A stretch of 64,000 bases of DNA from Patescibacteria group bacterium (GTDB lineage Bacteria; Patescibacteriota; Patescibacteriia; UBA9934), in NCBI GenBank assembly GCA_041661425.1, contig JBAZUI010000003.1:10446-74445 (forward strand). The letters run 5' to 3'. The notes beneath the pieces were generated by a model, which worked only from the letters and a program-made list of their open reading frames with translations, had not been told where the DNA came from and ran no database searches. The position numbers were made by a program, and so were the translations under genes. How positions within the stretch are numbered: position 1 is the stretch's first letter; the number at the start of each line of letters is the position of its first letter. Shown here piece by piece: positions 16,555 through 62,619 of the stretch.

Positions 16555-16620
16555 CTGGGGGTCAGGTCGTTACTTGTAGCGTTATTTTTAAGAAGTGCGA
16601 CAAGTAACGACCTGACCCTC
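16555..16620. terminator. Perfect ~20-bp stem hairpin between ftsA and ftsZ
   Basis: GGGGTCAGGTCGTTACTTGT ... ACAAGTAACGACCTGACCC. Could be a terminator/attenuator or processing site. Confidence 0.5.
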
Positions 16621-38197: not shown

Positions 38198-38214
38198 CGA
38201 AGAACCACCCCTTA

Positions 38215-38270
38215 CCCCTCCTTTGAAAGGAGGGGTAATTACGTAGGGACAGGTCGCGACCTGTCCCTAC
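38215..38270. repeat. Two palindromic units: CCCCTCCTTTGAAAGGAGGGG and GTAGGGACAGGTCGCGACCTGTCCCTAC
   Basis: Both belong to families that recur elsewhere in the window (48.77 kb, 54.38 kb; 37.25, 42.03, 49.05, 52.3 kb). Confidence 0.7.
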
Positions 38271-38429
38271 AGAATGATGCAGGTGGATAAAATTTCAATA
38301 GGTAGAATGACAGATAGAACGAAGAAAGCCGAGACAGGGGTTAGGGGCTGGAACCCCCTTAAAAACAATTCGAGTCCCGTTTCGCGAGACGAGTAGTCTC
38401 AAGCGATACGGGACTCAGAGAGGTGTGCG

Positions 38430-40082
38430 CTAGTAGTTGGACTTCGTGACCCGCACGGCCGGACATCCACCCGAAGGTGTGTGGCCGGGTCGGGGCACGC
38501 AGTCCTCGAGGAGGGGCGAGCCGTCGACGAGGATCGTGCGATCGCTCACCGTGGCGCCAGCCACCTCGATACGGTAGCGCACTCCATCGATTTTTCCGCA
38601 CCCCACCACCACGCCGGAGTCGTTCCGGTAGGCAATGTAGGTGTGGAAGATCTCCGGCGCCGGAGTTTCTGCCGCGCTGACCTCGGCCACGGTCGTGATG
38701 GCTGGCTCTGATTTCCACTCGGGGAGCTTGGGCCAGCCAACCTCGGGGATCGCGACATCCGGCATGCTCGGACGCCAGGTAGGCATGGCCGGCAGGCTGA
38801 TGGTCGGCGCCTTCGGCCAGGTGATGGCCGGAGCCTTGGGCAGATTCGGGATGGAGATGCGGGGCATCTCCACCTTGGGCCAAGTCCAGGGCTCATTGGG
38901 CGGCGGAGATTCTTCCTCCTCGAGTGCGGTGAGGAGCGCGGGGTCGGGCTTTGCCTCGACCATCACGAGCTTCTCCTGGGGCGCATCAACGAGGATCAAC
39001 CCGTCGAGCTGACCCACGAGCACGAGGACGAGAACGGTGAGTGTGACACCCACTATGAACTCGAACCCCATCGCGACCGCTCCCCACGTCGCGATGCGTT
39101 TGACGAGCGAAGGCTGTCTTGGCCTTGCTTCGCGTGGAGTTGCCGGTGGCGGAGCATAGCGACGCTCCTGTGCCGGGGTCGTACTCCAGGCGAGTAGTTC
39201 CTCGTCTTCCCAGACGTCCCCGTCGGACGCGTTCCTCTCAGGCGCAGGCCTCACGGTCACAACATCATTGGGGTCGATGTCGATCACGATCGGCCGTGGA
39301 ACCCGTGGGGCGTGCTGGGGAGCTGGCGTCCGTTGCTCGGCGAGGACCGGGAGCTGATCCTCCTCCCACTCGACCATCACAGGCCTTGGGCCTGGGGCGC
39401 GGTAGAATTGCCCGAGGTCCGGCATCATCTTCTTGGTCGATCCGATGACTGCTGGGAGCAGCCGCGCATCGCCCGTATCTTCGTCCAGTATGAAGATCGG
39501 GGCTTCTTCGTCGATTTCGATCACCGCCCCATCGGTCGGGTCGGCGTCGGGATCGATGAACTCGAGGTTGCTGAAGTCATCGAGAACAGTTTCCGCCCGG
39601 GACCAGGTACCCTTGGGAGCTGTCCAGATCCCCAGCTCATCCGCGAGAGCCTGGATGTGCCTCTCGAACTCCCTCGAGATCTTCAAGAGGGAGGTCGCGA
39701 TCACTGCGACAGCCTCGGGAATCGGGAAGTCGGAGAGAACATCAGTCTGTTCTTTTTTCATCTTCTCGATGTCGCCCATGGTCGGACGACGGGGAAGGCT
39801 CGCAATGAGCATCCTGTGGTGTGCGAGCATGGTTTCCACGCTCTGCACACCTTCGAGAACTTCGTCGGCACCCACTGCCTTCTTGCAGAATGCAGCGAGT
39901 TCGACTCGAAGGGGCTCGAAGAAGTCGCTGACATCCTTTGGCGGGATTTCCACCTCAATCAGCAGGGATGTCGCGAGCTCCTTGAACACGATGCCTACCG
40001 AGAAGAACGGTGCATCGTCTTTCTGAATGTTCTCGAGACAGGCAACAGCATAACGGACAGAAGCCTTGAAAGTGTCGAGCAT
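38430..40082 (-). CDS. Hypothetical membrane protein of high-GC island 1 (cytoplasmic N-domain, TM, Pro-rich ectodomain with WPK repeats and Cys-containing C-terminal module)
   Basis: GC3 near 90%, unlike host genes. Opposite-strand ORFs are low-complexity mirrors. Confidence 0.5.
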   Translation of the reverse strand: MLDTFKASVRYAVACLENIQKDDAPFFSVGIVFKELATSLLIEVEIPPKDVSDFFEPLRVELAAFCKKAVGADEVLEGVQSVETMLAHHRMLIASLPRRPTMGDIEKMKKEQTDVLSDFPIPEAVAVIATSLLKISREFERHIQALADELGIWTAPKGTWSRAETVLDDFSNLEFIDPDADPTDGAVIEIDEEAPIFILDEDTGDARLLPAVIGSTKKMMPDLGQFYRAPGPRPVMVEWEEDQLPVLAEQRTPAPQHAPRVPRPIVIDIDPNDVVTVRPAPERNASDGDVWEDEELLAWSTTPAQERRYAPPPATPREARPRQPSLVKRIATWGAVAMGFEFIVGVTLTVLVLVLVGQLDGLILVDAPQEKLVMVEAKPDPALLTALEEEESPPPNEPWTWPKVEMPRISIPNLPKAPAITWPKAPTISLPAMPTWRPSMPDVAIPEVGWPKLPEWKSEPAITTVAEVSAAETPAPEIFHTYIAYRNDSGVVVGCGKIDGVRYRIEVAGATVSDRTILVDGSPLLEDCVPRPGHTPSGGCPAVRVTKSNY

Positions 40083-40255
40083 TCTCCCCTCCCGGGGTTT
40101 GCGGTTTTTGTGGTTGGATAACAGAAAGTTTGAAAAGAACAGAGGGGAACATTAACAAAAAAAATGCGTCTTGTCAACGCATGATCTTAAACGAAAATGC
40201 CCCCCGACCGAAGTTAGACTTCAATCGGGGAGCAGGGGCCTGACAGACGGGAGCG

Positions 40256-41782
40256 CTAGTTGATGCGCTCGACCGTTGGGCAGGCCCGGCTGGCGGGGGT
40301 CGTCTCGCCAGGATTGCCGGTGAGGCAATCCCAGGCCACGGGCTTGCCGCGGTAGCGGCAGGCACCGTCCTCGGCGGGCTTCACATTGAGCCCGTTGAGG
40401 AAGTACTGCCCGCCCGTGGTGGGGCGGACCACGACCGCGCCGTGTCCGGCGACCTGGCGGCCACACGGCACGAAAGCCGTGGGCACCGGCGGGGCCGCGG
40501 GCTGCTCGAGGGCGCTGAGGCGCGCCTCGAGGTCGGCCAGGGCCTCGTCCGTGTCGGACGAGGCGACTGGGACGGGGGTGACCACCACCGGGATCGTCTC
40601 GACGACGGCCGGGGTGCTCACCCACCACCAGCCGCCGATTCCGGTGGTCCCCACGAGGCCGGCGCACAGGGCGCAGGCCAGGAGGAGGGCGAGCAGGGCA
40701 ACGAGGCCCAGACACCCGCCCTTCCACCATCCCCACCAGCCGTTGCCCTTGGCGGGCGGGTCGGCGGGGGGATCGGCCACCGCCACCTTCTTGGTGGGCG
40801 GCTCGTCCGGCGGGCCACCGGCCATGGCCGCGAGGCCGATGACCGGGACCACGGGGATGAACGGTGGCGGGGCCACGGCGCGGGGCGCCGGGGCCGGGTC
40901 GGTGTCGGCCGCCGCCTTGTCCACGGCCGCGCTGAGCGCGGCGTCGTGGTTGGGGCCGGCGGGCGGGTCGGCCACGGTCGCCTTGGGGGCGATCTTGGCC
41001 GTGGCATCCCCGGGGTCGGGCACCACGGCCGCGAGGACCGTGGGGACCGGGCGCGGCGGGAGGCTCGGGCCCTTGGGGGGCTCGGGCTCGGCCGGGGCCG
41101 GGGTGGCGGCGGGCGGGTCGGTGGGCGAGGAGGCGATCACCTCCTCATCCTCATCCTCGTCCTCGTCGTCCGCGTCGGTGTCGGTCGGGTCGGGCTCGAC
41201 CGGGGCAGCCTCGGTAGCCGCCTTGGCCGCCTCGACGGCCTGCTCGGCCCGGTGGGCCGCGGCGCGGGCCGCCTCGGCCGTGGCCTCGGCGGTATCGGCC
41301 TCGGCCTTGCGGCCGTCGGCGATCGCCTCGGCCGAGCCGGCCTTGTCGGCGGCCTCGTCCGCCTTTCGGCCGAGGTCGTCGTCGTCGGGGCTGGCCTCGG
41401 CCACGGCGTCGGCCTTCTTGGCGATCTTCCGGAGCCGTTCGGCCTCGATCACGGCGGCCTCGGCCAGCGACTTTTTGCCGCCGGCGATGGCCGCAAGCAC
41501 CATGAGCTCGTCGGCCTTGAGCCGCTCCCAGAAGGCCACGACCTCGGGGTCGATTGACGACTCGTCGGTTTTGGCGAAGGCGTCGAGCGCCTCGGTCGCG
41601 GCGACGATCTGCTCGCGCAGCTCGCCGAGCTCGAGGTTGAGCTCTTCGGCCTCATCGGTCTTGGCCTCGGCCTCGAGCTTGGCCTTGGTGGCCAGGAACT
41701 CGGCGACCGACTCCGCCATGAGCTGGCGGAGGGCCGCGAGGGTCGCGGCGGAGGCGGGGGTGACGGCGGGGGTCTGGGTCAT
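40256..41782 (-). CDS. Hypothetical membrane protein of high-GC island 1 (Ala/Glu-rich coiled-coil N-terminus, poly-acidic tract, TM, Trp cluster, Cys-containing C-terminal module)
   Basis: Same architecture as the 38430 gene, so probably a paralog. Very high GC3. Confidence 0.5.
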   Translation of the reverse strand: MTQTPAVTPASAATLAALRQLMAESVAEFLATKAKLEAEAKTDEAEELNLELGELREQIVAATEALDAFAKTDESSIDPEVVAFWERLKADELMVLAAIAGGKKSLAEAAVIEAERLRKIAKKADAVAEASPDDDDLGRKADEAADKAGSAEAIADGRKAEADTAEATAEAARAAAHRAEQAVEAAKAATEAAPVEPDPTDTDADDEDEDEDEEVIASSPTDPPAATPAPAEPEPPKGPSLPPRPVPTVLAAVVPDPGDATAKIAPKATVADPPAGPNHDAALSAAVDKAAADTDPAPAPRAVAPPPFIPVVPVIGLAAMAGGPPDEPPTKKVAVADPPADPPAKGNGWWGWWKGGCLGLVALLALLLACALCAGLVGTTGIGGWWWVSTPAVVETIPVVVTPVPVASSDTDEALADLEARLSALEQPAAPPVPTAFVPCGRQVAGHGAVVVRPTTGGQYFLNGLNVKPAEDGACRYRGKPVAWDCLTGNPGETTPASRACPTVERIN

Positions 41783-42070
41783 CGGAAACTCCTTGCCCTC
41801 TTGGAGGGCAATGGGGGTGGTGGATATTTGCCAGGGGGTCAGCTTCTCGGTCGACCCCTGGCGGGTTCTTCAGATGTAAATGAAGGAGATCGCCCCTTTT
41901 TGAGGTTTTAAGGCCTCTTAAAGGGACGATTCCAGGCTTGAACTGGACCGGGTATTATAGCAGAAAAACAGCGATTTGTCAATGATTCAAATGAAAAAAT
42001 CGCCTTATCTTGGCGAAATTCATGGGCAGGTCACAGACCTGCCCGTACGCAAATCAATCAAAACAAAAAG

Positions 42071-42697: not shown

Positions 42698-42808
42698 TTT
42701 TTTGGATCAAGGATAAACTCGATGAGATGTTGGCGCGTGGGGAAGCAAGCCTCCGAGACGTACACATTGTACGAAGAGGAGGTTGCGGGGCCCCACAAAC
42801 CAACAGAT
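42698..42808 (-). ncRNA. Copy A of a ~106-nt structured intergenic element (infC-rpmI spacer)
   Basis: Reverse complement aligns with copies at 53364 and 62466. Ends are conserved and internal helices carry compensatory changes. Confidence 0.55.
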
Positions 42809-42827
42809 CGCGAGTTTATCATTGATC

Positions 42828-43379
42828 TTATGAATTTTTAGCAACGATCATATTCATACGCCCTTCCATCTTCGAAATCGGCGATTCAATGCGAACGTCC
42901 ATTTCTTCACGGATGGAATCAAGGAAGGTGTGCATAATATCCTCGGCACGTTCGGCATAGGCCTTTTCACGGCCTCGTAAAATTAACTCAATACGAATTT
43001 TATCACCTTGCTCCAAGAATTTGACTGCTTGATTTTTGCGAATTTCCAAATCACCCTGACCAATGCGTAGCGAAAGCCGAATCCCTTTCACATCAACTTC
43101 CTTACTCTGGGCGCGCTGTTTGCGCATTTCTTTTTCCTTTTGATATTTAAACGCGCCATAATCCATCAATCGGCAAACTGGTGGCACGGCTTTTGGCGAG
43201 ACTTCAATCAAATCAAGTCCAGCTTCCTCGGCGCGAGCCAAAGCCGCAGGGACGGTAAGAACTTCATTTGCTCCGGCATCATCAATTAATCGTATTTCCG
43301 GTGCAATAATTTTTTCATTCACCCGATACTGGGGAATGTTGAACTTTGGTTTAAAATGGCGGTGTCTGTGAATGCGCAT
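42828..43379 (-). CDS. infC: Translation initiation factor IF-3
   Basis: Classic IF3 N- and C-domains. Probable non-ATG start as usual for infC. Confidence 0.9.
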   Translation of the reverse strand: MRIHRHRHFKPKFNIPQYRVNEKIIAPEIRLIDDAGANEVLTVPAALARAEEAGLDLIEVSPKAVPPVCRLMDYGAFKYQKEKEMRKQRAQSKEVDVKGIRLSLRIGQGDLEIRKNQAVKFLEQGDKIRIELILRGREKAYAERAEDIMHTFLDSIREEMDVRIESPISKMEGRMNMIVAKNS

Positions 43380-43637
43380 GGGTGATGGATATTTGTTTCA
43401 AAATTTGTGGCAAATTTTCGTCATTCTGAGGCCAACCTGTCCTTCGAAGCCCAAAGGGCGAAGGAGGAAGGCCGAATGAATCTCTTGAGCGATTATTAAG
43501 AGATCCTTCGCTTTGCTCAGGATGACGGCGGGGGACTGAGTCCTCCTACGCTCCTCGGCATCGCTTCGGAGCTTCGGAGGACAACCTTCGCTTCAGCTGG
43601 CAGGGTGGCCTGCCAACCGTAGCTTCAGCGAAGCTGA
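43380..43637 (-). promoter_or_regulatory. Highly structured leader upstream of infC-rpmI-rplT (candidate L20-type autoregulatory leader and/or repeat-derived)
   Basis: CGTCATTCTGAGG pairs with CTCAGGATGACGG ~130 nt away with a G-U. Several nested hairpins. Shares the CGTCATTGCGAG motif family. Confidence 0.35.
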
Positions 43638-44039
43638 AGCGAAGGTTGGTGGACCTGGGGAGAATTGAACTCCCGTCTGGTCAGTAAATCCTTCACAATT
43701 GTTTTACAAGTTTTGCTCTACTTAATTTGCGTCCAGGGGATCGAAGCAGAGCGAAAATCCCAAGGAACGTTCTGATGGGCCATAGAATGCTTTTCGTCCA
43801 TCAGGAAGCGAAGGCATCCACCTTTGGTTATGACACTCGATCTGATTCTTAAGGTTCAAATCAGGGAGCGGGCGGTCACCTAATTAGGCGACGGCCATGG
43901 CAAGGGAAGGCATGCGGAACATGTCTTTCACCTTTGTGACAACATTGGCATGTGTCGATTGCGCATAGCTATGACGGGAGATGCGCCTCCCGACTTGATT
44001 GGGAAGGGTTAAACTCTGCCATCGATTCCTGGCAGGCCC
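43638..44039 (-). ncRNA. ssrA: tmRNA (ssrA)
   Basis: Minus-strand 5' end GGGCCUGCCAGGAAUCGAUGGCAG matches tmRNA 5' consensus GGGGCUGAUUCUGGAUUCGACGGG. 3' end GGACGGGAGUUCAAUUCUCCCCAGGUCCACCA is a tRNA-Ala-like T-arm/acceptor/CCA. G3:U70 pair. Just downstream of smpB. Confidence 0.75.
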
Positions 44040-44060
44040 ACGTTAGGACTTCCGCCTTTA

Positions 44061-44175
44061 GCGCATAGCTTTGTCAAAAACCTCCGCACTTCGTCACCGT
44101 ACGCATTGGTACGGCTCCTCGTTGCTCGGTTTTTTCCTCGCTCTGCATCTAAAGGCGAAAGTCCTAAAAGTTCTC
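44061..44175 (+). repeat. Copy 1 of a ~115-bp conserved intergenic element (second copy at 46938-47043)
   Basis: Shared ends GCGCATARCTTTGTCRAAA ... CTCGYTCTGCATCYAAA..CTAAAAGTTCT. Internal hairpin covaries (CCGTAC/GTACGG vs CGGAC/GTCCG). Confidence 0.5.
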
Positions 44176-44178
44176 ATT

Positions 44179-44658
44179 TTATTTAAAGCGCGTTTTTTTG
44201 AGCTCCTCGCGCATCTGCTTTTCAATTGAGCGTTTCTTGAGGCTTTCGCGTTTTTCGTACTTCTTTTTTCCACGTCCAACGCCAAACTCAAGTTTCACTA
44301 AATCGCCCTTAGTATAGACAGAAATTGGGAGAATCGTCAACCCATCAGCCTGTTTTTTTCCAATGAGGGTATTGATTTCATTGCGGTGCACCAGCACCTT
44401 GCGATCGTGCGTGGGATCATAATCTTTTTGCTCACCCGCTGGCGCGTATTTTCCAATGTGCATGTTCTTGAGAAAGAGCTGATTATTTTGGATCGTTAAA
44501 AATGCTCCTTTCAGATTGATGCTCCCGCGTTTTGCCGCTTTTACTTCCGCACCACTCAAAACCAGTCCGCCCTCGTATTTTGAGAGGATGTCATAATCGA
44601 ATCTGGCACGTTTGTTGACAGCGAGTGTTGGCACAAGAATTTTATGATACAATAACAT
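44179..44658 (-). CDS. smpB: SsrA-binding protein SmpB
   Basis: RARFDYDILSKYEGGLVLSGAEVK... Confidence 0.9.
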   Translation of the reverse strand: MLLYHKILVPTLAVNKRARFDYDILSKYEGGLVLSGAEVKAAKRGSINLKGAFLTIQNNQLFLKNMHIGKYAPAGEQKDYDPTHDRKVLVHRNEINTLIGKKQADGLTILPISVYTKGDLVKLEFGVGRGKKKYEKRESLKKRSIEKQMREELKKTRFK

Positions 44659-44663
44659 AAACT

Positions 44664-45746
44664 ATGACCGTTAAAAAGGAGGACGCGTCCGTGAAGCGCG
44701 CAATAAGCGTTTCCATTACCCCGGGAACGATTCTGACGATTTTTGCGATTGGGTGTTTGGCAGCGCTTGTCTTTTATTTGCGGAATTTGATTCCGGTTTT
44801 TTTGGCAGCGCTTTATATTGCCGCGCTTGTGAACCCGTATGCAAATTGGGGCGCGCGTCTTCATTTACCAAAAGGAGTTTCGGTTGGGATTCTCTACATT
44901 GTGGGACTGCTTTTTATTTGCGGAGTCCTGATTCTTATTCTTCCAACGCTTGTGGGGCAGGTTCAAGAAGCATTTACAAATTACCCCGGGATCATTACGG
45001 GTTTCTTTGGGAATGATCCATTGGTACGCGCCATGATCAATGGCACATGGTTCGATCTCAATCTTGAACAAATGATTATCTCCGTCCAACATTCCGGCGT
45101 GCAAGAAAGCCTGCCACAGATTGTGACCGCGATCACCAATGCATTTTCGGGAATTGTGACGGGGTTGCTTGTTTTGATTCTTGCGTTTTATCTTGTGGTC
45201 GATGGATCGTCCATTCGCGGAAGTCTCCATCTTATTATGCCGTCGTCTGCAAAACGTTTTGTGCTCGAAGTGCTTCCGATTGTCAAAACGAAAATCAGTT
45301 TGTGGTTGCGCGGTCAGCTGATCATCATGATCACGATGTTTACGATTACCTATATTTCTCTTTCGATTCTTGGGGTGCCGTATGCCTTACTCCTCGCTCT
45401 TCTCACCGGGCTTTTGGAAATCATTCCATTTCTTGGACCGATTATTGCGGCGGTTCCATCCATTATTCTCGCTTTTACGGTCTCGCCTGTCATGGCAGTG
45501 CTCGTGGCTATTCTCTATTTTGTGATGGAACAACTTGAAGGTGATTTACTCACACCAAAGATCATGCAACAGACGATCGGCTTGCATCCGATTGTCACGA
45601 TTGGCTCTTTGCTTGTAGGGTATGAAATAGGGGGTGTTGTGGGAGCGCTCTTGGCCGTGCCAACCGCAATGGTCGTGAGTGTTTCCTTGCACGAGTGGCA
45701 TCACTTAACATCAAAAAAGAAAACGTATGCACGAACAACATCTTAG
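44664..45746 (+). CDS. AI-2E family transporter (PerM/YhhT-like)
   Basis: 8 TM, LLTGLLEIIPFLGPIIAAVP signature. Confidence 0.75.
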   Translation: MTVKKEDASVKRAISVSITPGTILTIFAIGCLAALVFYLRNLIPVFLAALYIAALVNPYANWGARLHLPKGVSVGILYIVGLLFICGVLILILPTLVGQVQEAFTNYPGIITGFFGNDPLVRAMINGTWFDLNLEQMIISVQHSGVQESLPQIVTAITNAFSGIVTGLLVLILAFYLVVDGSSIRGSLHLIMPSSAKRFVLEVLPIVKTKISLWLRGQLIIMITMFTITYISLSILGVPYALLLALLTGLLEIIPFLGPIIAAVPSIILAFTVSPVMAVLVAILYFVMEQLEGDLLTPKIMQQTIGLHPIVTIGSLLVGYEIGGVVGALLAVPTAMVVSVSLHEWHHLTSKKKTYARTTS

Positions 45747-46113
45747 AGTCTGGCTGCCGTTTTTGGGCATTGGATTGATTCTGGGCGCCACGGTTATTGT
45801 CGCCAGTTGGATGATGCTTGCGGAAGGCGGAAAAGCACAAGATTCGCCGATCGCGCAAGTGGAAACTAGCGAAGCGCCATCGCCCGAAGTTTACGAGAAG
45901 CAAATACATGACATGATCGGCATGGTTGATGTTTGGAGTGCGAATGAGATGTATGGAATTTTATTGAGTATGCGCGTGCCGTCAGATTATCGCGAGTTCC
46001 ACTTCGCGCTCGTGCAAGCGCTTGAAGATTTACGCGACGGGAAAGTCGAAGAAGGGAAGTCGGCGATCGAAGCGTTAAAAGTCGTCTATCCTTGGCTTGC
46101 GAATCTTCCGTAA
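45727..46113 (+). CDS. Hypothetical membrane-anchored protein
   Basis: ORF with N-terminal TM, in operon position. Confidence 0.4.
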   Translation: MHEQHLRVWLPFLGIGLILGATVIVASWMMLAEGGKAQDSPIAQVETSEAPSPEVYEKQIHDMIGMVDVWSANEMYGILLSMRVPSDYREFHFALVQALEDLRDGKVEEGKSAIEALKVVYPWLANLP

Positions 46114-46916
46114 TGTCACTTCCCATGATTTTACTTCACCGTATCACGTCATTCTTCGTTTCGGCTCTGGCGGCCGGGGGATATTATTTTTTGATTTTTC
46201 ATCCGTTCGTCGAGGGATCCTCTATCGATCGCGTGACCGCATTGATCGCCATGGGAAGTGTCGCACTTCTTTCAGCTTTGCTCCTTTCGCGATTGCTCAA
46301 ATGGGAAGTCACCTCATTTTCTTTTTGGATTTTTTTGAGCGTTCCCATGTTTGTGATCATTTCGTCATTTTGCCTTTATCTTTTTCTTGAGATTCTTGCA
46401 CTGAAGATTATTCTTGCGCTCATGGTGAGTCTAGCGCTCTGGCTGTATACGGAAAATCTTTTTGCGTTTTATCATCTGCCCGCCGCCTATCAAGCCTATG
46501 CCTTGGAATATCTTTCCGTGATTCTTTATTTGCTTTCTTGTTTTTTCTTTGCGAGCAGTGCGTATGGCGCGCAAATGTTTTTGCAATATCCCATTTGGAT
46601 GCTCTCCATTGCGATGTTCTGGGTGGTTATTCTTGCGACGGCGGGAGTCTTTTGGGTGAGCAAAGTCGATTCCGAAACGAGTATGCTCTATGCCATTGTT
46701 GGTGCCATTATGCTCACGGAAGGGTATGTCGTCATCGGGTTGCTTCCAACAAGTTTTCTTACGAACGGAGCGGCGTTTACGGTGCTTCTGTATTTATTCT
46801 TCGGACTTTCGCGTGCGCATGTGCTCGAAAAGCTCACGCGTCCGGTGGCCTCACGCTATCTTGGGATCGCCGGAGCGTTTATGGTATTGGTTTTTTTAAC
46901 CGCAAGATGGTTTTAA
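46092..46916 (+). CDS. Hypothetical polytopic membrane protein (8 TM)
   Basis: Continuous hydrophobic ORF. Confidence 0.45.
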   Translation: MACESSVMSLPMILLHRITSFFVSALAAGGYYFLIFHPFVEGSSIDRVTALIAMGSVALLSALLLSRLLKWEVTSFSFWIFLSVPMFVIISSFCLYLFLEILALKIILALMVSLALWLYTENLFAFYHLPAAYQAYALEYLSVILYLLSCFFFASSAYGAQMFLQYPIWMLSIAMFWVVILATAGVFWVSKVDSETSMLYAIVGAIMLTEGYVVIGLLPTSFLTNGAAFTVLLYLFFGLSRAHVLEKLTRPVASRYLGIAGAFMVLVFLTARWF

Positions 46917-46937
46917 TATGCAGGACTTTTGTCTTTG

Positions 46938-47043
46938 GCGCATAACTTTGTCGAAACCTTCGTTTTTCGTTCAACGGACATCTGGGTCCGTCTCACGAAA
47001 AGCCTTTGTTTCTCCTCGTTCTGCATCCAAATCTAAAAGTTCT
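46938..47043 (+). repeat. Copy 2 of the ~115-bp conserved intergenic element
   Basis: See copy 1 at 44061-44175. Confidence 0.5.
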
Positions 47044-47059
47044 TTTTCACATAAGTATG

Positions 47060-48157
47060 TTTGAACATCGAAAAAAAGAATTCTTCTGGCAAGTTGCTTT
47101 CACGGCTTTTATTTTTTCCGTGATTGCCGGAGCGGCCTCGGGATTGATTGCCGCGGTGCTCGCAAATCAATCTCTTGATCATTATTATCAAACCTTGCTC
47201 GAGGAACAAGAATTCGCCGCCATCTCACAGGTGCGACCCGAAGCCATCCCGGGAACCTATGAAGAGGCACTCTCTGTGGTACATACAAATCTCTCCAAAA
47301 CAATTGGATTCGTTCATGCAAAATCAACGGATGCTTCGACTGTTTCCGGTTTGCAAATTGCCGATGGATATACCGGAGCCTGTGCGATTATTACAAACGA
47401 TGGATGGATGGCCTGCTACGAAGATGTTTTTGAGAATTTTTATACACCGATTTCTCAAGCGGAAATGTGGATTGAGGGAAGTCGTTATGCCATCACGTCT
47501 ATGGTTGCGGATTCGCTTTCCGATTTGGTGATGGTGAAAATCGAGGCAACCAATCTTTCCTCGGTCGCATTTGGTGATGCCGCGGGAACGAACGAGGGGA
47601 CCATGCTTTTTGCCGCCACGCAACCGGAGGAGATTTTTGTAACAAGTTTTTCCGGGAACCCCATGATCGCATCCAAGGTTGCTCTGCCTGATGTTCAATT
47701 TGTAAATGGCTGGTCGCTTTCCACCGGGCTTCCTGCAAGCGCACCGCTTTTTAATTCCTCTGGCAAACTCGTGGCATTGGGAAGTGGCAGTGAAGCCATT
47801 TCCTTAACCGTGGCTTGGTCGGCCATCGAATCAACCATTGCCAAAGGTGAGATTTCACATGCGTCCATGGGGGTGACTGTCATTTCTATCCCGGATATGC
47901 TCAATGCTTCTGCAACGGCATTTCCGGAACAGGGAGCGTTGATTACCGCGATTGCCGTGGATTCTCCGGCTGAGCTTTCCGGATTTTTGGTGGGGGACGT
48001 GATTCTTTCCATTGGAGGAACATCAATTGAAAAAACAAATCTTGCCGAGGTTCTTGCGGGTTATGAAGTGGGAGATGTCGCGAATGTTGAATTCTCCCGC
48101 GAGGGGGAGATTCAAAAAGTGGATGTGGCATTCGGTTCCTCTGAAATGATTTTCTAG
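47060..48157 (+). CDS. HtrA-like trypsin-fold protein with C-terminal PDZ domain, probable pseudoprotease
   Basis: Trypsin-fold layout with DLVMVKIE. Expected GNSGGPL is replaced by LPASAPL (Ser to Ala) and the His region is altered. PDZ GALITAIAVDSPAE...GDVILSIGG. Confidence 0.5.
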   Translation, partial: FEHRKKEFFWQVAFTAFIFSVIAGAASGLIAAVLANQSLDHYYQTLLEEQEFAAISQVRPEAIPGTYEEALSVVHTNLSKTIGFVHAKSTDASTVSGLQIADGYTGACAIITNDGWMACYEDVFENFYTPISQAEMWIEGSRYAITSMVADSLSDLVMVKIEATNLSSVAFGDAAGTNEGTMLFAATQPEEIFVTSFSGNPMIASKVALPDVQFVNGWSLSTGLPASAPLFNSSGKLVALGSGSEAISLTVAWSAIESTIAKGEISHASMGVTVISIPDMLNASATAFPEQGALITAIAVDSPAELSGFLVGDVILSIGGTSIEKTNLAEVLAGYEVGDVANVEFSREGEIQKVDVAFGSSEMIF

Positions 48158-48759: not shown

Positions 48760-49140
48760 TCGCGACCACCCCTCACCCCTCCTTTGAAAGGAGGGGTCTC
48801 CTTCTGGAGCCTCCCCCTTAAGCAAGGGGGAGTAAAGAGGGGGTTATGAAAACCGTGGGGCGACCGGCCGGTCGCCCATAGTAAGCGAAGTGTATGGGGG
48901 TGTAAATTCGATTTTCTTGACACCGGTTTTCTCCTCTGTTAGGTTTGAACCATGAAGCCCCTTGGAAGGGCTCGGTGGAACGGTCGTGACGCCTCCTCCT
49001 CGTCGCGATTCGTCCCCGCCGAGCCTTTCGAGGGGGTTTTTGTTTTTGGGCAGGTCGCAGACCCGCCCGTACGGCGTGATGTAGGGGCATGGCATGCCAT
49101 GCCCATACGCCAAAGCGCGTTTTTTTGCTCATTTTACCCA
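48760..49140. repeat. BIME-like cluster of GC-rich palindromic units
   Basis: CCCCTCCTTTGAAAGGAGGGG, CTCCCCCTTAAGCAAGGGGGAG, GGGCGACCGGCCGGTCGCCC, GGGCAGGTCGCAGACCCGCCC, GGCATGGCATGCCATGCC in series. Confidence 0.6.
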
Positions 49141-49415
49141 TAAAACCCACCAAACCCCTTGACAATCAGCTGGTTTTTTGATATTGTTACGGGTCCGTAA
49201 AAACGGGCGTGACCTTTAAAAAGGCTGGTTTCTGGCCTTCTCTGATTCGGTGTCCGACAACCTACCCTCCTAGGATGTTGTTGACGCCGGGTCATAGAAG
49301 GCTCAGAAGTCAGAAAATGAGCCCCCGCACCCCCGTGCGGGGGGCATAAGCCACAAAACCCCGCCCGTCCTCCCCAGAAAGGAGGCTCCGGGCAAAAACC
49401 AAAAGGAGGGTCACC

Positions 49416-50396
49416 ATGACCCTGTCCCTCGCTCTGTCCCTCGCCCTGTCCCTCGCCACCCCGGCCCTGGCCCAGGACCTCCCGTCCTGCCCGGCTGGCC
49501 ACCACCTCAAGCCCGCCGACGCCGAGTGTGTCGACGATGTGGTGGCGGCCCTGCCGCCGACGGCCGAGTCGGCACAGGCCGCGGCCGATGAGGCCAAGGC
49601 CCTGATCGCGGACCTGCAGCAGCAGGTCCGCGCCTACCGCATCACCCAGGCCACGGCCAACGCCCAGGCCAAGGCCGACCTCGAGCTCGTGATTGCGGGA
49701 CTCAAGTCCCGCATCGAAGAGCTTCAGGCCTTGGTGGCCCGGGGCAAGGCCGACCAGGCCGTGGTCGACGCCCGTCAGGATGACGTCACGGCCCAGGCCC
49801 AGGTCACGGCCAACGAGGCCAAGGCCGACGCGGCCAAGGCCAACAAGGCCGTGGGCGACGCCCGGTACGACATCGCCCAGCTCGGCATCCAGGCCGAGCT
49901 GCAGGAGGTGCGCCTCGGCCACGAAGAGGACGAGGAGGGCAGGATCGGCGCCCACGCGGGCGTCTGGGTCCAGTCCCACGGCGCAATCCCCGGGGTCGGC
50001 GACGAGCTGTCCGCGGGCGTGGTGGGAGGTCTCTCCTGGCGCGAGCGGACCTCTGCCGGCGAGACCTACGCCGACATCGGAGCCGTGCTCGGCTCCGACA
50101 ACATCCTCGGCGGTGCCGTGGAGCTTGGGCGGGTGTGGAACCTGCCCGTGGTCCCGATCGCCATCGGCATCGTGGCCGGGGCCGACGTCGTGGGCTACGA
50201 AGCCTACGATAGCAAGACCTCGTCCTCGTCACTGGGGATCGACGGCCTGGCCGGACCCGCCGTCACCGTCGATCTGGGCGGGGCGGAAGTCGATGTAGTA
50301 CCGGCGTTTTACGTCGGTACCATCCACAACCGGTTTGCCGTCCCGGACAACACGCTCCGGTCCGGCTTCGTCGGCTCGGTGAAGGTGCGGTTCTAG
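49416..50396 (+). CDS. High-GC island 2 secreted protein: signal peptide, Ala-rich coiled coil, beta-rich C-terminus ending in Phe (OMP-like)
   Basis: MTLSLALSLALSLATPALAQ signal. GC3 >85%. Terminal ...VKVRF. Confidence 0.55.
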   Translation: MTLSLALSLALSLATPALAQDLPSCPAGHHLKPADAECVDDVVAALPPTAESAQAAADEAKALIADLQQQVRAYRITQATANAQAKADLELVIAGLKSRIEELQALVARGKADQAVVDARQDDVTAQAQVTANEAKADAAKANKAVGDARYDIAQLGIQAELQEVRLGHEEDEEGRIGAHAGVWVQSHGAIPGVGDELSAGVVGGLSWRERTSAGETYADIGAVLGSDNILGGAVELGRVWNLPVVPIAIGIVAGADVVGYEAYDSKTSSSSLGIDGLAGPAVTVDLGGAEVDVVPAFYVGTIHNRFAVPDNTLRSGFVGSVKVRF

Positions 50397-50810
50397 AGCG
50401 CAACGCTCGAACCGCCGCCCTCACCAACTACGTGTTCGCGGGGATTAATCAAGTGCACTGCACAAGATTCTTCCCCGCGGATGCAACTTATCAAGAATTG
50501 TTACGGATGCTCTTCTAGTGTGAAGAACAGCCATAAGACTTCTTGAAAATTGAGGAAGTCAAGAACATTCAAATCGAAAATACAACGAACATCTGCGATG
50601 GTGCCGTCCACATGAGTGCTGATTAGCACTGAAGGATTGCCGACTAGACTAAATGGTTCCAAAGAAATTTTTGGCACTCATGAGTCGTCGCCATGGCAGA
50701 TGTTCGAAAGCTGCCTCCGCCCGCCCTTGGGGCGGCGGCAAAGTTTCCGCTCGCGACCCATCCCGGGTCTACGAGCAAGTGTCTAAACCTAGAAGTCCTT
50801 GGAGGACACC

Positions 50811-52016
50811 ATGATCCGATTCGCCCTGCTCCTCGCCGCCCTCGCCCTCTCCGCCTGCACCGGGGACCTTTTTGTCCCCGACAAGGCCGACGACGACGGC
50901 GACACCGACACCCCCACCGACGTCGACACCGACGGCGACGGGTACGACACCGACGTCGACTGCAACGACCACTCGGCCAGCGTCCACCCGGGCGCCACCG
51001 AGCTCTGCAACAACGTCGACGATGACTGCGACGGGTACGTCGACGAGGGCCTGGACTGCAACGACGCCGTCGACGCCGCCGGCGATGGCTATGCCTACGC
51101 CGACGACTGCGACGACTCCGACGTTTCCGTCCACCCCGGCGCCACCGAGACCTGCAACGGCATCGACGACGACTGCGACGACGACGTCGACGAAGGCATC
51201 GATTGCGATGCCGACGACGATGACGACGGCTACAGCGCCGCCGACGACTGCGACGACACCGACGCCTCCGTCCACCCCGGCGCGACCGAGACCTGCAACG
51301 AGGTCGACGACGACTGCGACAACGAGGTCGACGAGGACGTGACCGATACCTACTACCTCGACGACGACGGCGACGAGTACGGCGACCCCGACCACTCGGT
51401 CGAGGCCTGCGACGCGCCCGCCGGCTACGTCGACAACGACGACGACTGCGACGATGACGACGACGACGTCTACCCCGCCGCCGACGAGGACTGCAACGAC
51501 GGCGTCGACAACGACTGCGACGGCGACGAGGACGACGACGATGATGACTGCGATAGCGGCATCGTCTGCGATCCGGACGACAGCGACGACGTGGCCGACG
51601 GCTGCGTCGAAGTCTGCTGGTACCCCGACCCGGGGTCCGGCGCTGGCAACGACGTCGACGCCACGGTCTACGACCTGTGGTTCGGCGTCGAGACCATCGC
51701 CTCCGACGACACCATCGACCTCGTCGTGGTCGACTCCGGTTCGGCGTCGGGCATCTGCGTCGGCCTCTATGAGGACGACCTGGACGAGCTCCGCGTGAAC
51801 GTGGGGTTCGAGTTCGACGACGACGACTGGTCGGTCGACGGGGCATGGGACTCCGATTCCGATGATTTGGACGAGTGGTGGGCCTGCTCCACCTACTCGA
51901 CCGAAAACGGCGGGTTCTGGGGCCAGTTCACGGTCGACGGCGACACTGCCGACGACGTGGACGCCATCGACAACCCGGAGGAATCCGGGTACGACTGCCA
52001 GCTGAACAGCTGGTAG
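50811..52016 (+). CDS. High-GC island 2 lipoprotein with tandem MopE-type putative metal-binding repeats
   Basis: RBS GGAGGA precedes the ATG. Lipobox LALSAC. Four or more repeats DCDD.D.SVHPGATE.CNG.DDDCDG.VDEG. Asp-rich. Confidence 0.65.
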   Translation: MIRFALLLAALALSACTGDLFVPDKADDDGDTDTPTDVDTDGDGYDTDVDCNDHSASVHPGATELCNNVDDDCDGYVDEGLDCNDAVDAAGDGYAYADDCDDSDVSVHPGATETCNGIDDDCDDDVDEGIDCDADDDDDGYSAADDCDDTDASVHPGATETCNEVDDDCDNEVDEDVTDTYYLDDDGDEYGDPDHSVEACDAPAGYVDNDDDCDDDDDDVYPAADEDCNDGVDNDCDGDEDDDDDDCDSGIVCDPDDSDDVADGCVEVCWYPDPGSGAGNDVDATVYDLWFGVETIASDDTIDLVVVDSGSASGICVGLYEDDLDELRVNVGFEFDDDDWSVDGAWDSDSDDLDEWWACSTYSTENGGFWGQFTVDGDTADDVDAIDNPEESGYDCQLNSW

Positions 52017-52191
52017 AGTCCCACCCTCCGCCCTCTCTCTCAACTCCCGGCCGAGAACTACATGCGTCTGCGTGTGGTGCTCGTGTCCGGGGGTTTTTCG
52101 TTTTCACGTCATTGCAGGAGGCCTCATGGCCGACGCCTGCCCGTCCGAAGCTCCGATTATCCATCGTAGCTTTAGCGAAGACGGAAGGAGC

Positions 52192-52287
52192 GAAGGCGGG
52201 AAGCAATCTATCCGAACAGTTTGCTTCGTCCTCCCCTTGGTCGTCCTTCCGCCTTCGTCTTCTTCGGCGGACAGGCGCAATGACGGC
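52192..52287. repeat. Left arm of ~100-bp inverted repeat flanking rpsB-tsf
   Basis: Reverse complement matches 54104-54229 apart from a 33-bp insertion in the right arm. Contains GAAGCAATCT...AGATTGCTTC hairpin and GCGCAATGACGGC end. Confidence 0.7.
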
Positions 52288-52292
52288 AGAAG

Positions 52293-52354
52293 GGCGGGTC
52301 ACAGACCCGCCCGTACGTAAATCAATTCTGTAGGGGCAGGTCTGTGACCTGCCC
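52293..52354. repeat. Two head-to-head REP-like palindromes GGGC(G/A)GGTCACAGACC(C/T)GCCC
   Basis: Separated by GTACGTAAATCAATTCTGTA. Same family at 37246, 38243, 42024, 49048, 54261. Confidence 0.7.
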
Positions 52355-52510
52355 TTTTGGCGAATCCTTGACGAATCCCCATGTTTCCCCTACAATTCCC
52401 ACCAATCGCAACTGTCCTTCTAATCAATCAGGTTTGGGCGATATCCACTGGTTTCCTCCCAATTTATTGGGTCCAATGGATTCAAACCGCAGTCTAAAAG
52501 GAAAATTTCT

Positions 52511-53350
52511 ATGACCCACATCCCATCCATGCTCGATATGCTCAAGGCCGGCGTCCACTTTGGACATCGCACCAGCCGTTGGCATCCTAAAATGAAGTCC
52601 TATATTTTCGGCGCTCGCGGAGGCGTTCACGTCATTGACATCGAACAGACCCGCGCTCGTTTGGAAAAAATTCTGACGGATATTGAAAAGATGATTGCCG
52701 ACGGTGGCGTGATCATGTTCATTGGCACCAAAAAGCAAGTGCAGGATTTGGTCGCAAAGTACGCCAATGAATGCAATATGCCTTATGTCAACACGCGTTG
52801 GCTTGGAGGAACATTCACGAATTTTCCGGAAATCCATAAGCTTATTAAAAAGTATTTGGACCTCAAGGATAAACGTGTAAAAGGGGAACTCAAAAAATAT
52901 ACCAAGCTCGAACAATTGCAGTTTGATCGCAAAATTGAAGATCTTGATGGCCAAATCGGCGGAATCTCCATTCTCAAAGATTTACCAGATGCGGTATTCG
53001 TGCTTGATATGCGTCACGATAAAACAGCAGTGACCGAAGCGCGTTTGCGTGGCATCAAGGTGATTGGAATCTGCGACACCAATGTCAATCCGGAAATGGC
53101 CGATGAAGTTATTCCAGCCAATGATGATTCTGTTGCTTCTGTCACGATGATCACAAAATTGATTACCGAAGCCGTTCACGGCGGAAAGAGCAATGCCAAA
53201 AAAGCGATTGAACGTCGCGAGGCAGAACGCAAGGCCCGTGAAGAAGAATTGGCCGTGACCGCGGCTTCAAAAGCAACGGTCGAAGTGCTCGATGATGAAA
53301 TCAAAGAGAAACTCGCAAACGAAAAAATCGCTCAATTAAAAACGAAATAA
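52511..53350 (+). CDS. rpsB: 30S ribosomal protein S2
   Basis: LKAGVHFGHRTSRWHPKM... Confidence 0.95.
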   Translation: MTHIPSMLDMLKAGVHFGHRTSRWHPKMKSYIFGARGGVHVIDIEQTRARLEKILTDIEKMIADGGVIMFIGTKKQVQDLVAKYANECNMPYVNTRWLGGTFTNFPEIHKLIKKYLDLKDKRVKGELKKYTKLEQLQFDRKIEDLDGQIGGISILKDLPDAVFVLDMRHDKTAVTEARLRGIKVIGICDTNVNPEMADEVIPANDDSVASVTMITKLITEAVHGGKSNAKKAIERREAERKAREEELAVTAASKATVEVLDDEIKEKLANEKIAQLKTK

Positions 53351-53363
53351 TTAGAGACCTTGC

Positions 53364-53469
53364 AAAACTCGCGATCTGTTGGCTTGCGGGGCCCTGCCAT
53401 CTCCTCAACGTACACTCTGGTACGTCTCGGAGACTGGCTGTCCCGCGCACCAACATCTCATCGAGTTTT
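53364..53469 (+). ncRNA. Copy B of the ~106-nt structured intergenic element (rpsB-tsf spacer)
   Basis: AAACTCGCGATCTGTTGG...CCAACATCTCATCGAGTTT outer helix plus three inner helices. Confidence 0.55.
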
Positions 53470-53499
53470 GCGAAGGTCCAAGTATAATTCTATTTTTCT

Positions 53500-59172: not shown

Positions 59173-60063
59173 TTGATGAATTATTTTTATTCACAAGGGA
59201 CTCTTGGAATCGATGCTAAATTGTGTAATATGAGTTCATACACTCCCCATAATTTTTTTATGCTTACCAAAAATGATATAAAATTATTTCGTGGGGTGAT
59301 TCGCGAAGAGTTTCAAGCTGATACATTCAAGGATGGTGTGCGTGAGGTTCTTCATGATGAAATCCGTGGAGAATTTCAGGGTGATGCGTTTAAAGATGGC
59401 GTGCGAGAGATTCTCCATAACGAGATTGGCGAGGAATTTCAGGGTGAAACATTTAAGGACAGTATCCGTGAGGTTGTGAATCATGAAATTTGCGAAGAAT
59501 TTCAAGGTGAGACGTTCAAAAATAGCATCCGGGACGTCATCGACCATGAGATTCGTGGAGAGCTTCAGGGCGAAGCATTCAAGAACAGTATGCGGGAGGT
59601 TGTGAATAACGAGCTCCGTGGAGAACTCGGAGGTGAGACCTTTAAGGATAGTATTCGTGAGGCTGTGAATCATGAGATTCGTGGAGAGCTTCAGGGCGAA
59701 GCATTCAAGAACAGTATGCGGGGGGTTGTGAATAACGAGATTCACGAGGAGCTTCAGGCTGATTCGTTTAAGAATAGTGTGCGCGAAATTGTTAACGATG
59801 AGGTTGGTGAAGTTCTTGAGAATATCGTTGTCCCACAATTTGATGGCATCTATCGTGAAATGGACGAAATAAAGAGCAAAATAAGTGTTTTAGAGGACAC
59901 GGTGGTCACAAAAGACTATTTGGATGAAAGACTTATAAATTTTAAGGAAGAATTGAACCTCCCGGCGGTATGGGTCGCGAAGCAAGTCGAGCGACTTTCA
60001 CATATGCTCTATAAAGGAGGAATTTTAACTGCTGAACAGGTCGTAGAGATCAGGACGGAATAA
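59173..60063 (+). CDS. Hypothetical protein made of ten tandem 20-residue repeats (consensus IRGELQGEAFKNSMREVVNHE)
   Basis: 60-bp DNA periodicity from 59290 to 59830. Two 68-bp stretches are near-identical. Start codon choice is uncertain. Confidence 0.5.
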   Translation: MMNYFYSQGTLGIDAKLCNMSSYTPHNFFMLTKNDIKLFRGVIREEFQADTFKDGVREVLHDEIRGEFQGDAFKDGVREILHNEIGEEFQGETFKDSIREVVNHEICEEFQGETFKNSIRDVIDHEIRGELQGEAFKNSMREVVNNELRGELGGETFKDSIREAVNHEIRGELQGEAFKNSMRGVVNNEIHEELQADSFKNSVREIVNDEVGEVLENIVVPQFDGIYREMDEIKSKISVLEDTVVTKDYLDERLINFKEELNLPAVWVAKQVERLSHMLYKGGILTAEQVVEIRTE

Positions 60064-62457: not shown

Positions 62458-62465
62458 ACTGCTCC

Positions 62466-62583
62466 AAAACTCGCGATCTGTTGGCTTGCGGGGCCCTGCC
62501 ATCTCCTCATCGTACCTATCCGGTACGTCTCGGAGACTGGCTGTCCCGCGCACCAACATCTCATCGAGTTTTGAAGCAGTCCA
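62466..62583 (+). ncRNA. Copy C of the ~106-nt structured intergenic element
   Basis: Identical to copy B except the apical hairpin (CGTACC-tatcc-GGTACG vs ACGTAC-actctg-GTACGT). Confidence 0.55.
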
Positions 62584-62619
62584 AAGCGAGGCTGTCCTGA
62601 ATCCTGCTATAATAATCCC

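Follow-up and report, generated by a model that had tools for sequence, protein, structure and literature searches.

A family of palindromic intergenic repeats with a conserved internal core, found at gene ends in a Patescibacteria genome and in other bacterial phyla

The window analyzed here is a stretch of 64,000 nt of contig JBAZUI010000003.1 (assembly GCA_041661425.1) from a Patescibacteria group bacterium, and the subject is a palindromic repeat of which two copies, A and B, lie in its intergenic spacers, A beside the smpB and ssrA genes and B beside an HtrA-like gene. The tmRNA gene ssrA occupies positions 43647-44039 of the minus strand (Rfam RF00023, 80.4 bits) and smpB positions 44179-44658 of the same strand (Pfam SmpB, E 5.5e-46). 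Copy A is located in the spacer that separates the smpB stop (44179-44181) from the tmRNA 5' end (44039) and is antisense to both genes; the base of its hairpin is 6 nt from the tmRNA 5' end, and a TAAAAT hexamer is present at the smpB stop. Copy B is sense-oriented, starts 6 nt past the TAA stop of the open reading frame (ORF) 46092-46916 and ends 13 nt upstream of the ATG (47057) of a gene encoding a PDZ-domain HtrA-like protein. ARAGORN did not report the tmRNA gene that Rfam detects at 43647-44039; the tmRNA gene of the syntenic relative described below scores 85 bits.

A first-pass annotation had proposed that the two copies are a candidate small RNA (sRNA), a promoter module or a 5'-untranslated-region (5'-UTR) element. 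A scan of positions 43400-47400 revealed no promoter-like or terminator-like site on or beside the elements, which argues against an sRNA gene or a promoter module, and no sigma-70-like hexamer pair was found at them. Readings of a sigma-70 promoter (TTGACA..TATGCG) and of a sigma-54 promoter were both rejected on spacing by inspection, the promoter scan being empty as well. The elements also lack the short GC-rich hairpin followed by a T run that defines intrinsic terminators; no T-runs follow the stems except a TTTT after copy B.

The resemblance between the two copies, previously described as units of about 115 nt with conserved termini and 65% identity, was confirmed. The sequence GCGCATARCTTTGTCRAAA has exactly two matches in the window, at 44061 and 46938 (0.07 expected by chance), and CCTCGYTCTGCATCYAAA also exactly two, at 44136 and 47014 (0.20 expected). 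Global alignment of A and B over their full length gave 67% identity, compared with 50 ± 2% (maximum 56%) in shuffles, and the estimate of about 65% was therefore right. The repeated unit, however, is larger than had been proposed. It is a long hairpin which spans 44043-44167 in copy A (plus strand; 104.1 bits, E 1e-24) and 46922-47044 in copy B (plus strand; 107.3 bits, E 1.6e-25), as scored by R1, a covariance model built from relatives and run on the window without filters. The conserved termini held in part: GCGCATARCTTTGTCRAAA and CCTCGYTCTGCATCYAAA are shared at the places described, whereas CTAAAAGTTCT belongs to the 3' arm of the outer stem in B and lies mostly outside the hairpin in A (44164-44174), so that the CTAAAAGTTCT ends of the two copies are non-homologous.

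In copy A the left core motif GCGCATAGCTTTGTC is at 44061-44075, the apical hairpin CCGTAC-GCATTG-GTACGG at 44097-44114 and the right core motif CCTCGCTCTGCATC at 44136-44149, all on the plus strand. The apical stem is indeed compensatory, as had been noticed, with CCGTAC/GTACGG in A and ACGGAC/GTCCGT in B (46974-46991). Beyond this small internal stem-loop, each copy as a whole folds into one imperfect hairpin of about 55 pairs. An outer stem of 17-19 bp closes it; in A this stem is TTAGGACTTCCGCCTTTAG / CTAAAGGCGAAAGTCCTAA, the inverted-repeat arms 44043-44061 and 44149-44167 having 95% complementarity. The fold z-scores of the two copies span -6 to -10: the predicted RNA folding energy of A was -47.1 kcal/mol for the plus strand and -62.7 kcal/mol for the minus strand (z -7.5 and -10.1), and that of B -39.5 and -42.2 kcal/mol, respectively (z -6.0). 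The same fold was obtained with DNA energy parameters. When folded singly, the arms of copy A gave only -2.3 (left) and -3.0 kcal/mol (right), with z of +0.6 and 0.0. At 43960 of the plus strand, 85 nt from copy A, there is a sequence, TGCGCATAGCTATGAC, with two mismatches to the left motif.

The first-pass annotation had recognized two copies only; the covariance-model search found three more in the window, diverged from A and B (29-33.5 bits, E 1e-5 to 1e-6) and here called type 2, A and B being type 1. The window thus holds five members in 64 kb, about one per 13 kb. The type-2 element at 42699-42833 (minus strand; 33.5 bits, E 1.6e-6; -64.2 kcal/mol, z -9.9) is in the infC-rpmI spacer, starting directly after the infC stop TAA (42828-42830) and 42 nt upstream of rpmI. 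That at 53349-53485 (plus strand; 30 bits; -69 kcal/mol, z -8.4) separates rpsB (stop TAG, 53348-53350) from tsf (ATG, 53500), and that at 62451-62587 (plus strand; 29 bits; -71.3 kcal/mol, z -8.8) directly follows the metK stop TAG (62455-62457), upstream of ORF 62620-63366. The type-2 copies are about 82% identical to each other (mean alignment-column identity). Their junction, a conserved part of the hairpin described below, is that of type 1 minus one base pair (GCG-AT.../...TCT-CATC), their apical module is the same, and variants intermediate between the two types occur at other loci. A separate long hairpin at 50586-50706, with 21-nt arms 79 nt apart (z -5.9), lies in a low-GC patch of the second of two high-GC islands of the window; it carries no family motif and scores only 7.5 bits with R1.

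The search for further copies suggested earlier was rewarding, with more than 100 loci found. A pattern scan with GCGCATANCTTTGTC-N(55-80)-CTGCATC, using one genome per species, gave at least 111 loci; among the matches listed, about 8 are chance matches and about 100 share one architecture, including features that the pattern did not require, namely the apical GTAC hairpin, the TTCGCG/TCCTCG loop and complementary but variable outer and middle stems. The apical CGTAC-loop-GTACG, itself absent from the search pattern, is at least 90% conserved across 105 copies. Model R1 gave 117 matches in 731 kb of carrier loci. According to the record labels, the hosts within Patescibacteria are Uhrbacteria, Vogelbacteria, Campbellbacteria and Saccharibacteria; the others include uncultured gut Clostridia, Mogibacterium, Dethiobacter and metagenome-assembled genomes (MAGs) of a 'delta proteobacterium', Syntrophorhabdales and Syntrophaceae, together with MAGs labelled Gammaproteobacteria, a label that was not verified. 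A shorter variant is found in Undibacterium. Among the matches listed some MAGs contribute 9-10 loci each. The GC content of the element varies from 0.36 to 0.67 and tracks that of the host.

The element was not found in the catalogues consulted. Neither copy in the 43950-47150 region matched Rfam 15 at E≤10; at gathering thresholds the whole window gave only the tmRNA and one tRNA, leaving the elements unmatched, and 18 carrier loci from six or more lineages gave only tRNAs and a c-di-GMP-I riboswitch at the gathering score. Searches of plasmid and phage collections by blastn showed no match, and the pattern scan of viral contigs gave two matches for type 1 and none for type 2. No paper on the element was retrieved by literature searches with the motif string and with descriptions of it. 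Scanning metagenomes with the AI-2E transporter yielded no relatives, and a scan with smpB was used in its place. Three other identities were considered and set aside. A likeness to the hairpin ribozyme was suggested by two internal loops and an N-GUC, but AGAA is missing from the opposite loop and Rfam gave no match. A small conserved ORF on the complementary strand (ATG in GATGCAG, TGA in TGACAAAG, in frame in two copies) was rejected by inspection because the elements differ in length by amounts that are not multiples of 3 (88-93 nt) and the changes are compensatory, not codon-like. The reading of GCGCATAA as similar to the XerC arm of dif was dropped, as the second arm and the spacer are absent.

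Family members are hairpins of about 120-137 nt in which four parts can be distinguished. A variable outer stem of about 15-18 bp, often opening with a stop triplet, is followed by a conserved asymmetric junction, in which GCG(C)AT..CTTTGTY of one arm faces YTCGC..TCT(G)CATC of the opposite arm, then by a variable middle stem and finally by a conserved apical module, CTCAnCGTAC-loop-GTACGnCTC. The asymmetries of the junction, a C bulge opposite AU just above the outer stem and a T.C mismatch, are kept, and two internal loops are conserved as well. Outer-stem sequences and termini vary from copy to copy and from lineage to lineage, in contrast to the conserved internal core.

RNAalifold applied to the 105 copies predicted one hairpin with 37 pairs, 30 of which show compensatory changes. 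Of the alignment cells at these pairs, 91.7% were paired, compared with 33-46% when the partners were slid, and the covariation score was 0.623 against 0.10-0.15 in the slid controls; none of 500 shuffles reached the observed values. The covariation is thus very strong, and the earlier proposal of a structured, covarying repeat was right. The sole variable base of the left motif, the eighth, is matched to one base of the right motif by strict Watson-Crick covariation (AU in 52 sequences, GC in 36, CG in 16). Wobble pairs are sparse: G.T (GT+TG) makes up 2.5% of the variable-stem pairs and the A.C mismatch (AC+CA) 2.3%. When copies were split by the direction of transcription, no excess of wobble was observed on the transcribed strand (16 GU versus 35 AC in sense copies, 14 versus 16 in antisense copies; Fisher p 0.23, on small counts). 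The complement of the common orientation folds more stably in 98% of copies, by about 8.6 kcal/mol on average, because the conserved C.A mismatch becomes U.G there.

The presence of the element was compared with a relative, the metagenome contig behind loci L114 and L061, whose SmpB is 75% identical to that of the window. This contig is collinear with the window over 42.1-54.1 kb, with 67-82% nucleotide identity in the main syntenic blocks and up to 91% in short local matches. It is without the element at four window sites. The infC-rpmI spacer is about 46 nt in the relative and in the window consists of 42 nt plus a 135-nt element directly after the TAA; the ssrA-smpB spacer is 39 nt versus 140 nt in the window, that between the membrane-protein and PDZ genes 9 nt versus 139 nt, and that of rpsB-tsf 21 nt versus 149 nt. 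In the reciprocal case, a type-1 copy of the relative, 85% identical to B, is inserted between AAAGGAAA, which from its sequence we read as a Shine-Dalgarno sequence, and the rpsB ATG, where the window is uninterrupted. In the MAG of the relative, a further copy, 87% identical to A, is flanked by two unrelated ORFs, and that locus shows no similarity to smpB or ssrA.

The filled and empty sites 5' of rpsB (L061 versus the window), the best resolved of such pairs, allow a target duplication of at most 1-2 ambiguous A, and a TA...TA arrangement is possible in some Uhrbacteria copies only. Across 75 copies the flanks showed no conserved sequence and no consistent direct repeat or target duplication, and none of the positions -8 to -1 of the left flank is conserved. 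One Uhrbacteria MAG carries four near-identical copies, outer stems included, at four different loci (L016, L039, L052 and L057). The idea that the outer stem is templated from the target flank was refuted by this shared outer stem and by the filled/empty pair, in which no arm derives from the flank. Tandem runs of truncated copies occur beside complete elements (L060, 3290-3960; L054, 4150-4250; L089, 1250-1330), mostly of the half from the apical hairpin to the 3' end, suggesting rearrangement or repeated partial copying at those sites. In 483 kb of smpB loci from other Patescibacteria there were 3 weak matches, none of them between smpB and ssrA, indicating that the distribution is patchy. 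Taken together, the filled and empty sites, the near-identical copies elsewhere, the fragments and the patchiness indicate that the elements are dynamic and not tied to particular genes.

The position of the element relative to genes depends on its orientation. A stop codon overlaps the stem base or is within 5 nt of it in 38 of 60 sense copies and in 4 of 38 antisense copies; copy B and all three type-2 copies follow the sense rule. Stop triplets are about equally frequent at the two termini (51/75 and 46/75), so that the ends by themselves do not account for the asymmetry between sense and antisense copies. Of the copies between co-directional genes, 39 are in sense and 19 in antisense orientation. 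Copies are often inside operons, as in infC|rpmI and rpsB|tsf. Neighbors confirmed with Pfam are IF3, L35, L20, S2, EF-Ts, MetK, SmpB, EF-Tu, GAPDH, FtsX and ABC ATPases, and L7/L12, S10, S7, EF-G, FtsZ, MreB and GyrB were recognized by eye from translations only. An all-against-all blastp of the ORFs from about 100 loci revealed no recurrent partner gene, only housekeeping families, those recurring near copies being ABC/FtsE, FtsX, EF-Tu and GAPDH. Given the usual position directly 3' of a stop codon, the unrelated flanking genes and the empty sites of the relative, the element does not act as a regulator dedicated to ssrA or to the HtrA-like gene, nor is it a 5'-UTR element conserved for any one gene.

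The element is also oriented with respect to GC skew. Its plus strand is on the G-rich strand in 71 of 97 loci (p 5e-6) and, with the coding-strand effect balanced, in 47 of 67 (p 0.001), p-values which are optimistic since copies from the same genome are not independent. Within the balanced set, the bias also holds for 9 of the 13 copies flanked by genes on the other strand.

We favor, with a probability of roughly 55%, the interpretation that A and B are members of a new family of non-autonomous mobile palindromic elements. The sparse wobble, the orientation with GC skew and the unconserved flanks favor constraint and spread that are strand-specific, linked to replication and exerted at the DNA level. 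The element would spread as DNA, probably as a hairpin of one particular strand, single-stranded and exposed either in transcribed DNA or on the lagging-strand template, and its conserved bulges and mismatches would be read in the folded single strand by a host or trans-acting enzyme. Insertion would produce no target-site duplication. Once inserted, the element would be co-transcribed in mRNA, as we infer for the operon junctions, and copy A is probably part of the pre-tmRNA leader, in view of the TAAAAT at the smpB stop and the distance of only 6 nt to the mature 5' end. By looping out, the tight hairpin would hold stop codon, Shine-Dalgarno sequence and start codon near each other, so that spacers of 9-46 nt, and even the gap from a Shine-Dalgarno sequence to its ATG, would tolerate insertions of about 125 nt. 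Secondary effects on mRNA processing or stability, by RNase III cleavage or as a barrier to 3' exonucleases, are plausible.

Several observations weigh against this interpretation. No transposase or other recurrent gene was found near any copy in the approximately 100 loci, and an IS608 TnpA probe, whose identity was confirmed against PDB entry 2a6m, detected no Y1 transposase when compared by phmmer, at E≤10, with six-frame ORFs from 195 sequences (1.35 Mb). Classical miniature inverted-repeat transposable elements (MITEs) and repetitive extragenic palindromes (REP sequences) are species- or genus-specific; a core conserved across phyla, with stems tracking host GC, points to a strong functional constraint, for which pure selfishness on its own does not account. 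That contact with stop codons depends on orientation suggests that selection or targeting acts on the RNA or on translation, and the strength of the skew bias is tempered by the dependence among copies mentioned above. The empty sites of the relative may reflect loss of an unstable palindrome and not insertion in the window. The rpsB-tsf spacer of the relative, GACCCGTTAACTCGAAGTCAT (L061, 928-948), resembles a collapsed hairpin, being similar to the left arm of the window's type-2 hairpin at 53351-53485 joined to the final 6 nt of its right arm (GACCTTGCAAAACTCG...AAGGTC); this could be a deletion footprint or a chance resemblance.

The stop-codon rule is also what would be expected of a cis-acting RNA module at the 3' end of cistrons, bound by a conserved RNA-binding protein or nuclease, for example an RNase III intercistronic site, a stabilizer of mRNA 3' ends or a device setting expression ratios within operons, its copy number then reflecting recruitment. 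The preference of about 2:1 for the sense orientation between co-directional genes, the location at classical junctions within operons of highly expressed genes (infC|rpmI and rpsB|tsf, as well as downstream of gap, tuf and ftsX), the internal loops conserved across phyla beside variable stems, and the lack of an intrinsic-terminator tail, by which read-through is expected, are all consistent with it. We nevertheless regard such a module as rather unlikely, since 19 of the 58 copies between co-directional genes, copy A included, are antisense, the stems on the transcribed strand show no tolerance of G.U, the loops of the sense strand are pyrimidine-rich and that strand folds less stably than its complement in 98% of copies. 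Moreover, sites are not conserved between syntenic relatives, and orientation follows GC skew even when the flanking genes are on the opposite strand. A mobile element and an RNA module would, in our analysis, not be mutually exclusive. The stability of the complementary strand, its purine-rich loops, which we read as typical of structured RNAs, and the strong covariation could instead point to independent sRNA genes, trans-acting or protein-sequestering and possibly expressed from that purine-rich strand. This explanation is very improbable: the window copies have no promoter-like or terminator-like site at or beside them, no flanking sequence is conserved, the copies are squeezed into spacers otherwise of 9-46 nt, and wobble pairs are as rare as A.C mismatches.

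The short distances from B to the ATG at 47057 (13 nt) and from A to the tmRNA 5' end (6 nt), and the copy of the relative between Shine-Dalgarno sequence and rpsB ATG, would suit a promoter module or 5'-UTR element for ssrA and the HtrA-like gene. Its chances are equally slight, as the downstream genes are unrelated across about 100 loci, the orthologous ssrA and PDZ-protease sites are empty in the syntenic relative, no sigma-70-like hexamer pair was found and the orientation to the downstream gene is not fixed. The Watson-Crick-only covariation, on the other hand, together with the orientation bias with GC skew and a conserved bulge and mismatch of the kind that gives strand selectivity in integron attC sites and IS608 ends, would agree with a structure-specific DNA site for a conserved host protein that does not transpose, either a recombination site used as folded single-stranded DNA (like attC or the attP of CTX phage) or a cruciform-binding site for chromosome organization. 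Copies directly after stop codons would likewise recall attC after cassette ORFs. However, the stem base is variable and lacks an RYYYAAC/GTTRRRY box, the internal A-N-C/G-N'-T triplet covaries freely, copies are scattered in essential operons and not in arrays, where recombination between direct copies would delete smpB and other genes, and no integrase gene recurs nearby; this explanation is improbable, if somewhat less so than the two preceding ones.

It is possible, and we suggest it only tentatively, that the junction and the apical module are the working parts of an undescribed class of nucleic-acid element present in at least four bacterial phyla. They could be the recognition or cleavage site of a new strand-specific mobilization system acting on single-stranded DNA, which perhaps places hairpins right after stop codons by way of the strand exposed where translation and transcription uncouple. 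Alternatively, they could form a self-cleaving RNA, or one bound by a specific protein, acting at cistron ends.

The known REP, ERIC and Correia repeats each occur in a narrow bacterial group, mostly of cultured Proteobacteria and Firmicutes. Here the core is conserved from the tiny genomes of Patescibacteria to MAGs of Clostridia and delta-proteobacteria, and a mobile element with this core would be unusually widespread and long-lived. In that case the window would show a streamlined genome absorbing 125-nt insertions into spacers of 9-46 nt, and the relative even into the gap between Shine-Dalgarno sequence and start codon. If the core is read as RNA, it would be a new general signal at cistron ends. 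For practical purposes, a family model would improve the annotation of MAGs and flag sites prone to misassembly.

Other repeats were noticed in the same window. At the ssrA 3' end, the stretch 43569-43652 contains a perfect 17-bp inverted repeat (CAACCTTCGCTTCAGCT/AGCTGAAGCGAAGGTTG). As a non-syntenic stretch of the relative (L046, 7427-7511) matches it at 74%, this may be a further small repeat. Two high-GC islands, at 38200-42020 and 48800-52300, reach 58-69% GC per 1-kb window against a background of about 47% and carry ORFs with Asp/Cys-rich repeats. Their borders share repeats, ACCACCCCTYACCCCTCCTTTGAAAGGAGGGGT at 38204 and 48765 and GGGCRGGTCACAGACCYGCCCGTACG at 42024 and 52292, and the second island is partly present in the relative (L061/L114), indicating that it is not an artefact of the window alone. 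Unrelated short REP-like palindromes of the form GGGCAGGTC-n-GACCTGCCC, often followed by GTAC or GTAG, are located at 16559-16618, 38238-38275, 42024-42058, 49048-49082 and 52284-52362. In-frame tandem repeats occur inside long ORFs at 59299-59802 and 6397-6995, one of them with six copies of 63 nt and the other with a unit of about 126 nt, Cys/Asp/Gly-rich.

Among known systems, the element is most readily compared with the MITE-like repeats, which include Correia/NEMIS of Neisseria, ERIC/IRU and YPAL of enterobacteria and Yersinia, RUP/BOX of pneumococcus and RPE of Rickettsia. Like these, it is non-coding, falls in the size range of 100-170 nt, is present in many copies, folds end to end into a stem-loop and is intergenic, often downstream of genes and within operons, in both orientations, with filled and empty sites among related genomes. 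MITE-like families are limited to single genera or families; in most of them the terminal inverted repeats are conserved, with TA ends and target duplications, and some have a matching insertion sequence (IS). Here, in contrast, the termini are variable, neither a duplication nor a parent IS was found, and the conserved part is the internal asymmetric junction with the apical hairpin, shared across phyla. Terminal inverted repeats common to all copies and to a parent IS, by which MITEs are defined, were not found, whereas four filled sites empty in the relative, one reciprocal site and similar copies at non-orthologous loci are what a mobile repeat would leave. Transcripts of MITE-like hairpin repeats can be cut by RNase III or alter mRNA stability, and Correia and ERIC are mobile and RNA-active at once (PMC2229807).

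With REP and REPIN sequences the element has in common that it is an extragenic palindrome. A REP is a palindrome of 20-40 nt and a REPIN consists of two inverted units, forming hairpins of about 100 nt with compensatory evolution, no target duplication and structure-dependent recognition as a single strand; REP sequences are lineage-specific, unlike the core described here, which spans phyla. Since its arms fail to fold singly, the element is not a doublet of REP units. REP and REPIN sequences are mobilized by RAYT (TnpA-REP) tyrosine transposases, encoded by a single-copy Y1 gene which the repeats flank; the IS608 TnpA probe detected no Y1 transposase in the 1.35 Mb searched. REP elements are found mostly downstream of coding regions, between unidirectional or convergent genes, and are plausibly transcribed, and the end of the palindrome carries an unpaired GTAG or CGTC tag (PMC3733652). 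The TAG or TGACG ends of the element, where present, are base-paired with CTA or CGTCA; being variable and paired, the termini are not such tags.

The attC sites of integrons, imperfect palindromes 57-141 nt long, function as folded single strands, keep structure, bulges and mismatches while their sequence varies, and start right after the stop codon of the preceding ORF or overlap it. The element resembles them in being palindromic, in its conserved bulge and mismatch and in abutting stop codons. However, attC stems carry conserved R''/R' boxes at their base, and the sites form arrays of one orientation beside intI, whereas the stem base of the element is variable, without RYYYAAC/GTTRRRY boxes; the internal A-N-C/G-N'-T triplet covaries as AU, GC or CG, so that AAC/GTT is not conserved. 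Its copies are dispersed in both orientations among housekeeping operons (infC, rpsB, smpB, metK, gap, tuf), and no integrase or transposase recurs among the ORFs of the approximately 100 loci. The IS200/IS605 elements transpose as single-stranded DNA in a strand-specific manner, without target duplication, by recognition of imperfect hairpins with extrahelical bases, and their orientation is tied to the lagging-strand template. The orientation bias of the element with GC skew fits this behavior of IS200/IS605 ends and of PATEs, the derivatives without a transposase gene. The ends of IS200/IS605 are, however, two separate subterminal hairpins with a fixed tetra- or pentanucleotide target on the left flank, and the element is a single whole-length hairpin with no conserved flank.

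At the RNA level the nearest parallel is the set of sites R1-R5 in the early region of phage T7, intercistronic RNase III hairpins that have conserved internal loops and do not terminate transcription. The element is likewise a repeated intercistronic hairpin with conserved internal loops, but R1-R5 are shorter and all sense within one transcript, whereas one third of the copies of the element between co-directional genes are antisense. The closest known kind is the interspersed palindromic repeat, MITE-like or REP-like, and the family is set apart from all the systems compared here by a core conserved internally and across phyla and by a position at stop codons that depends on orientation.

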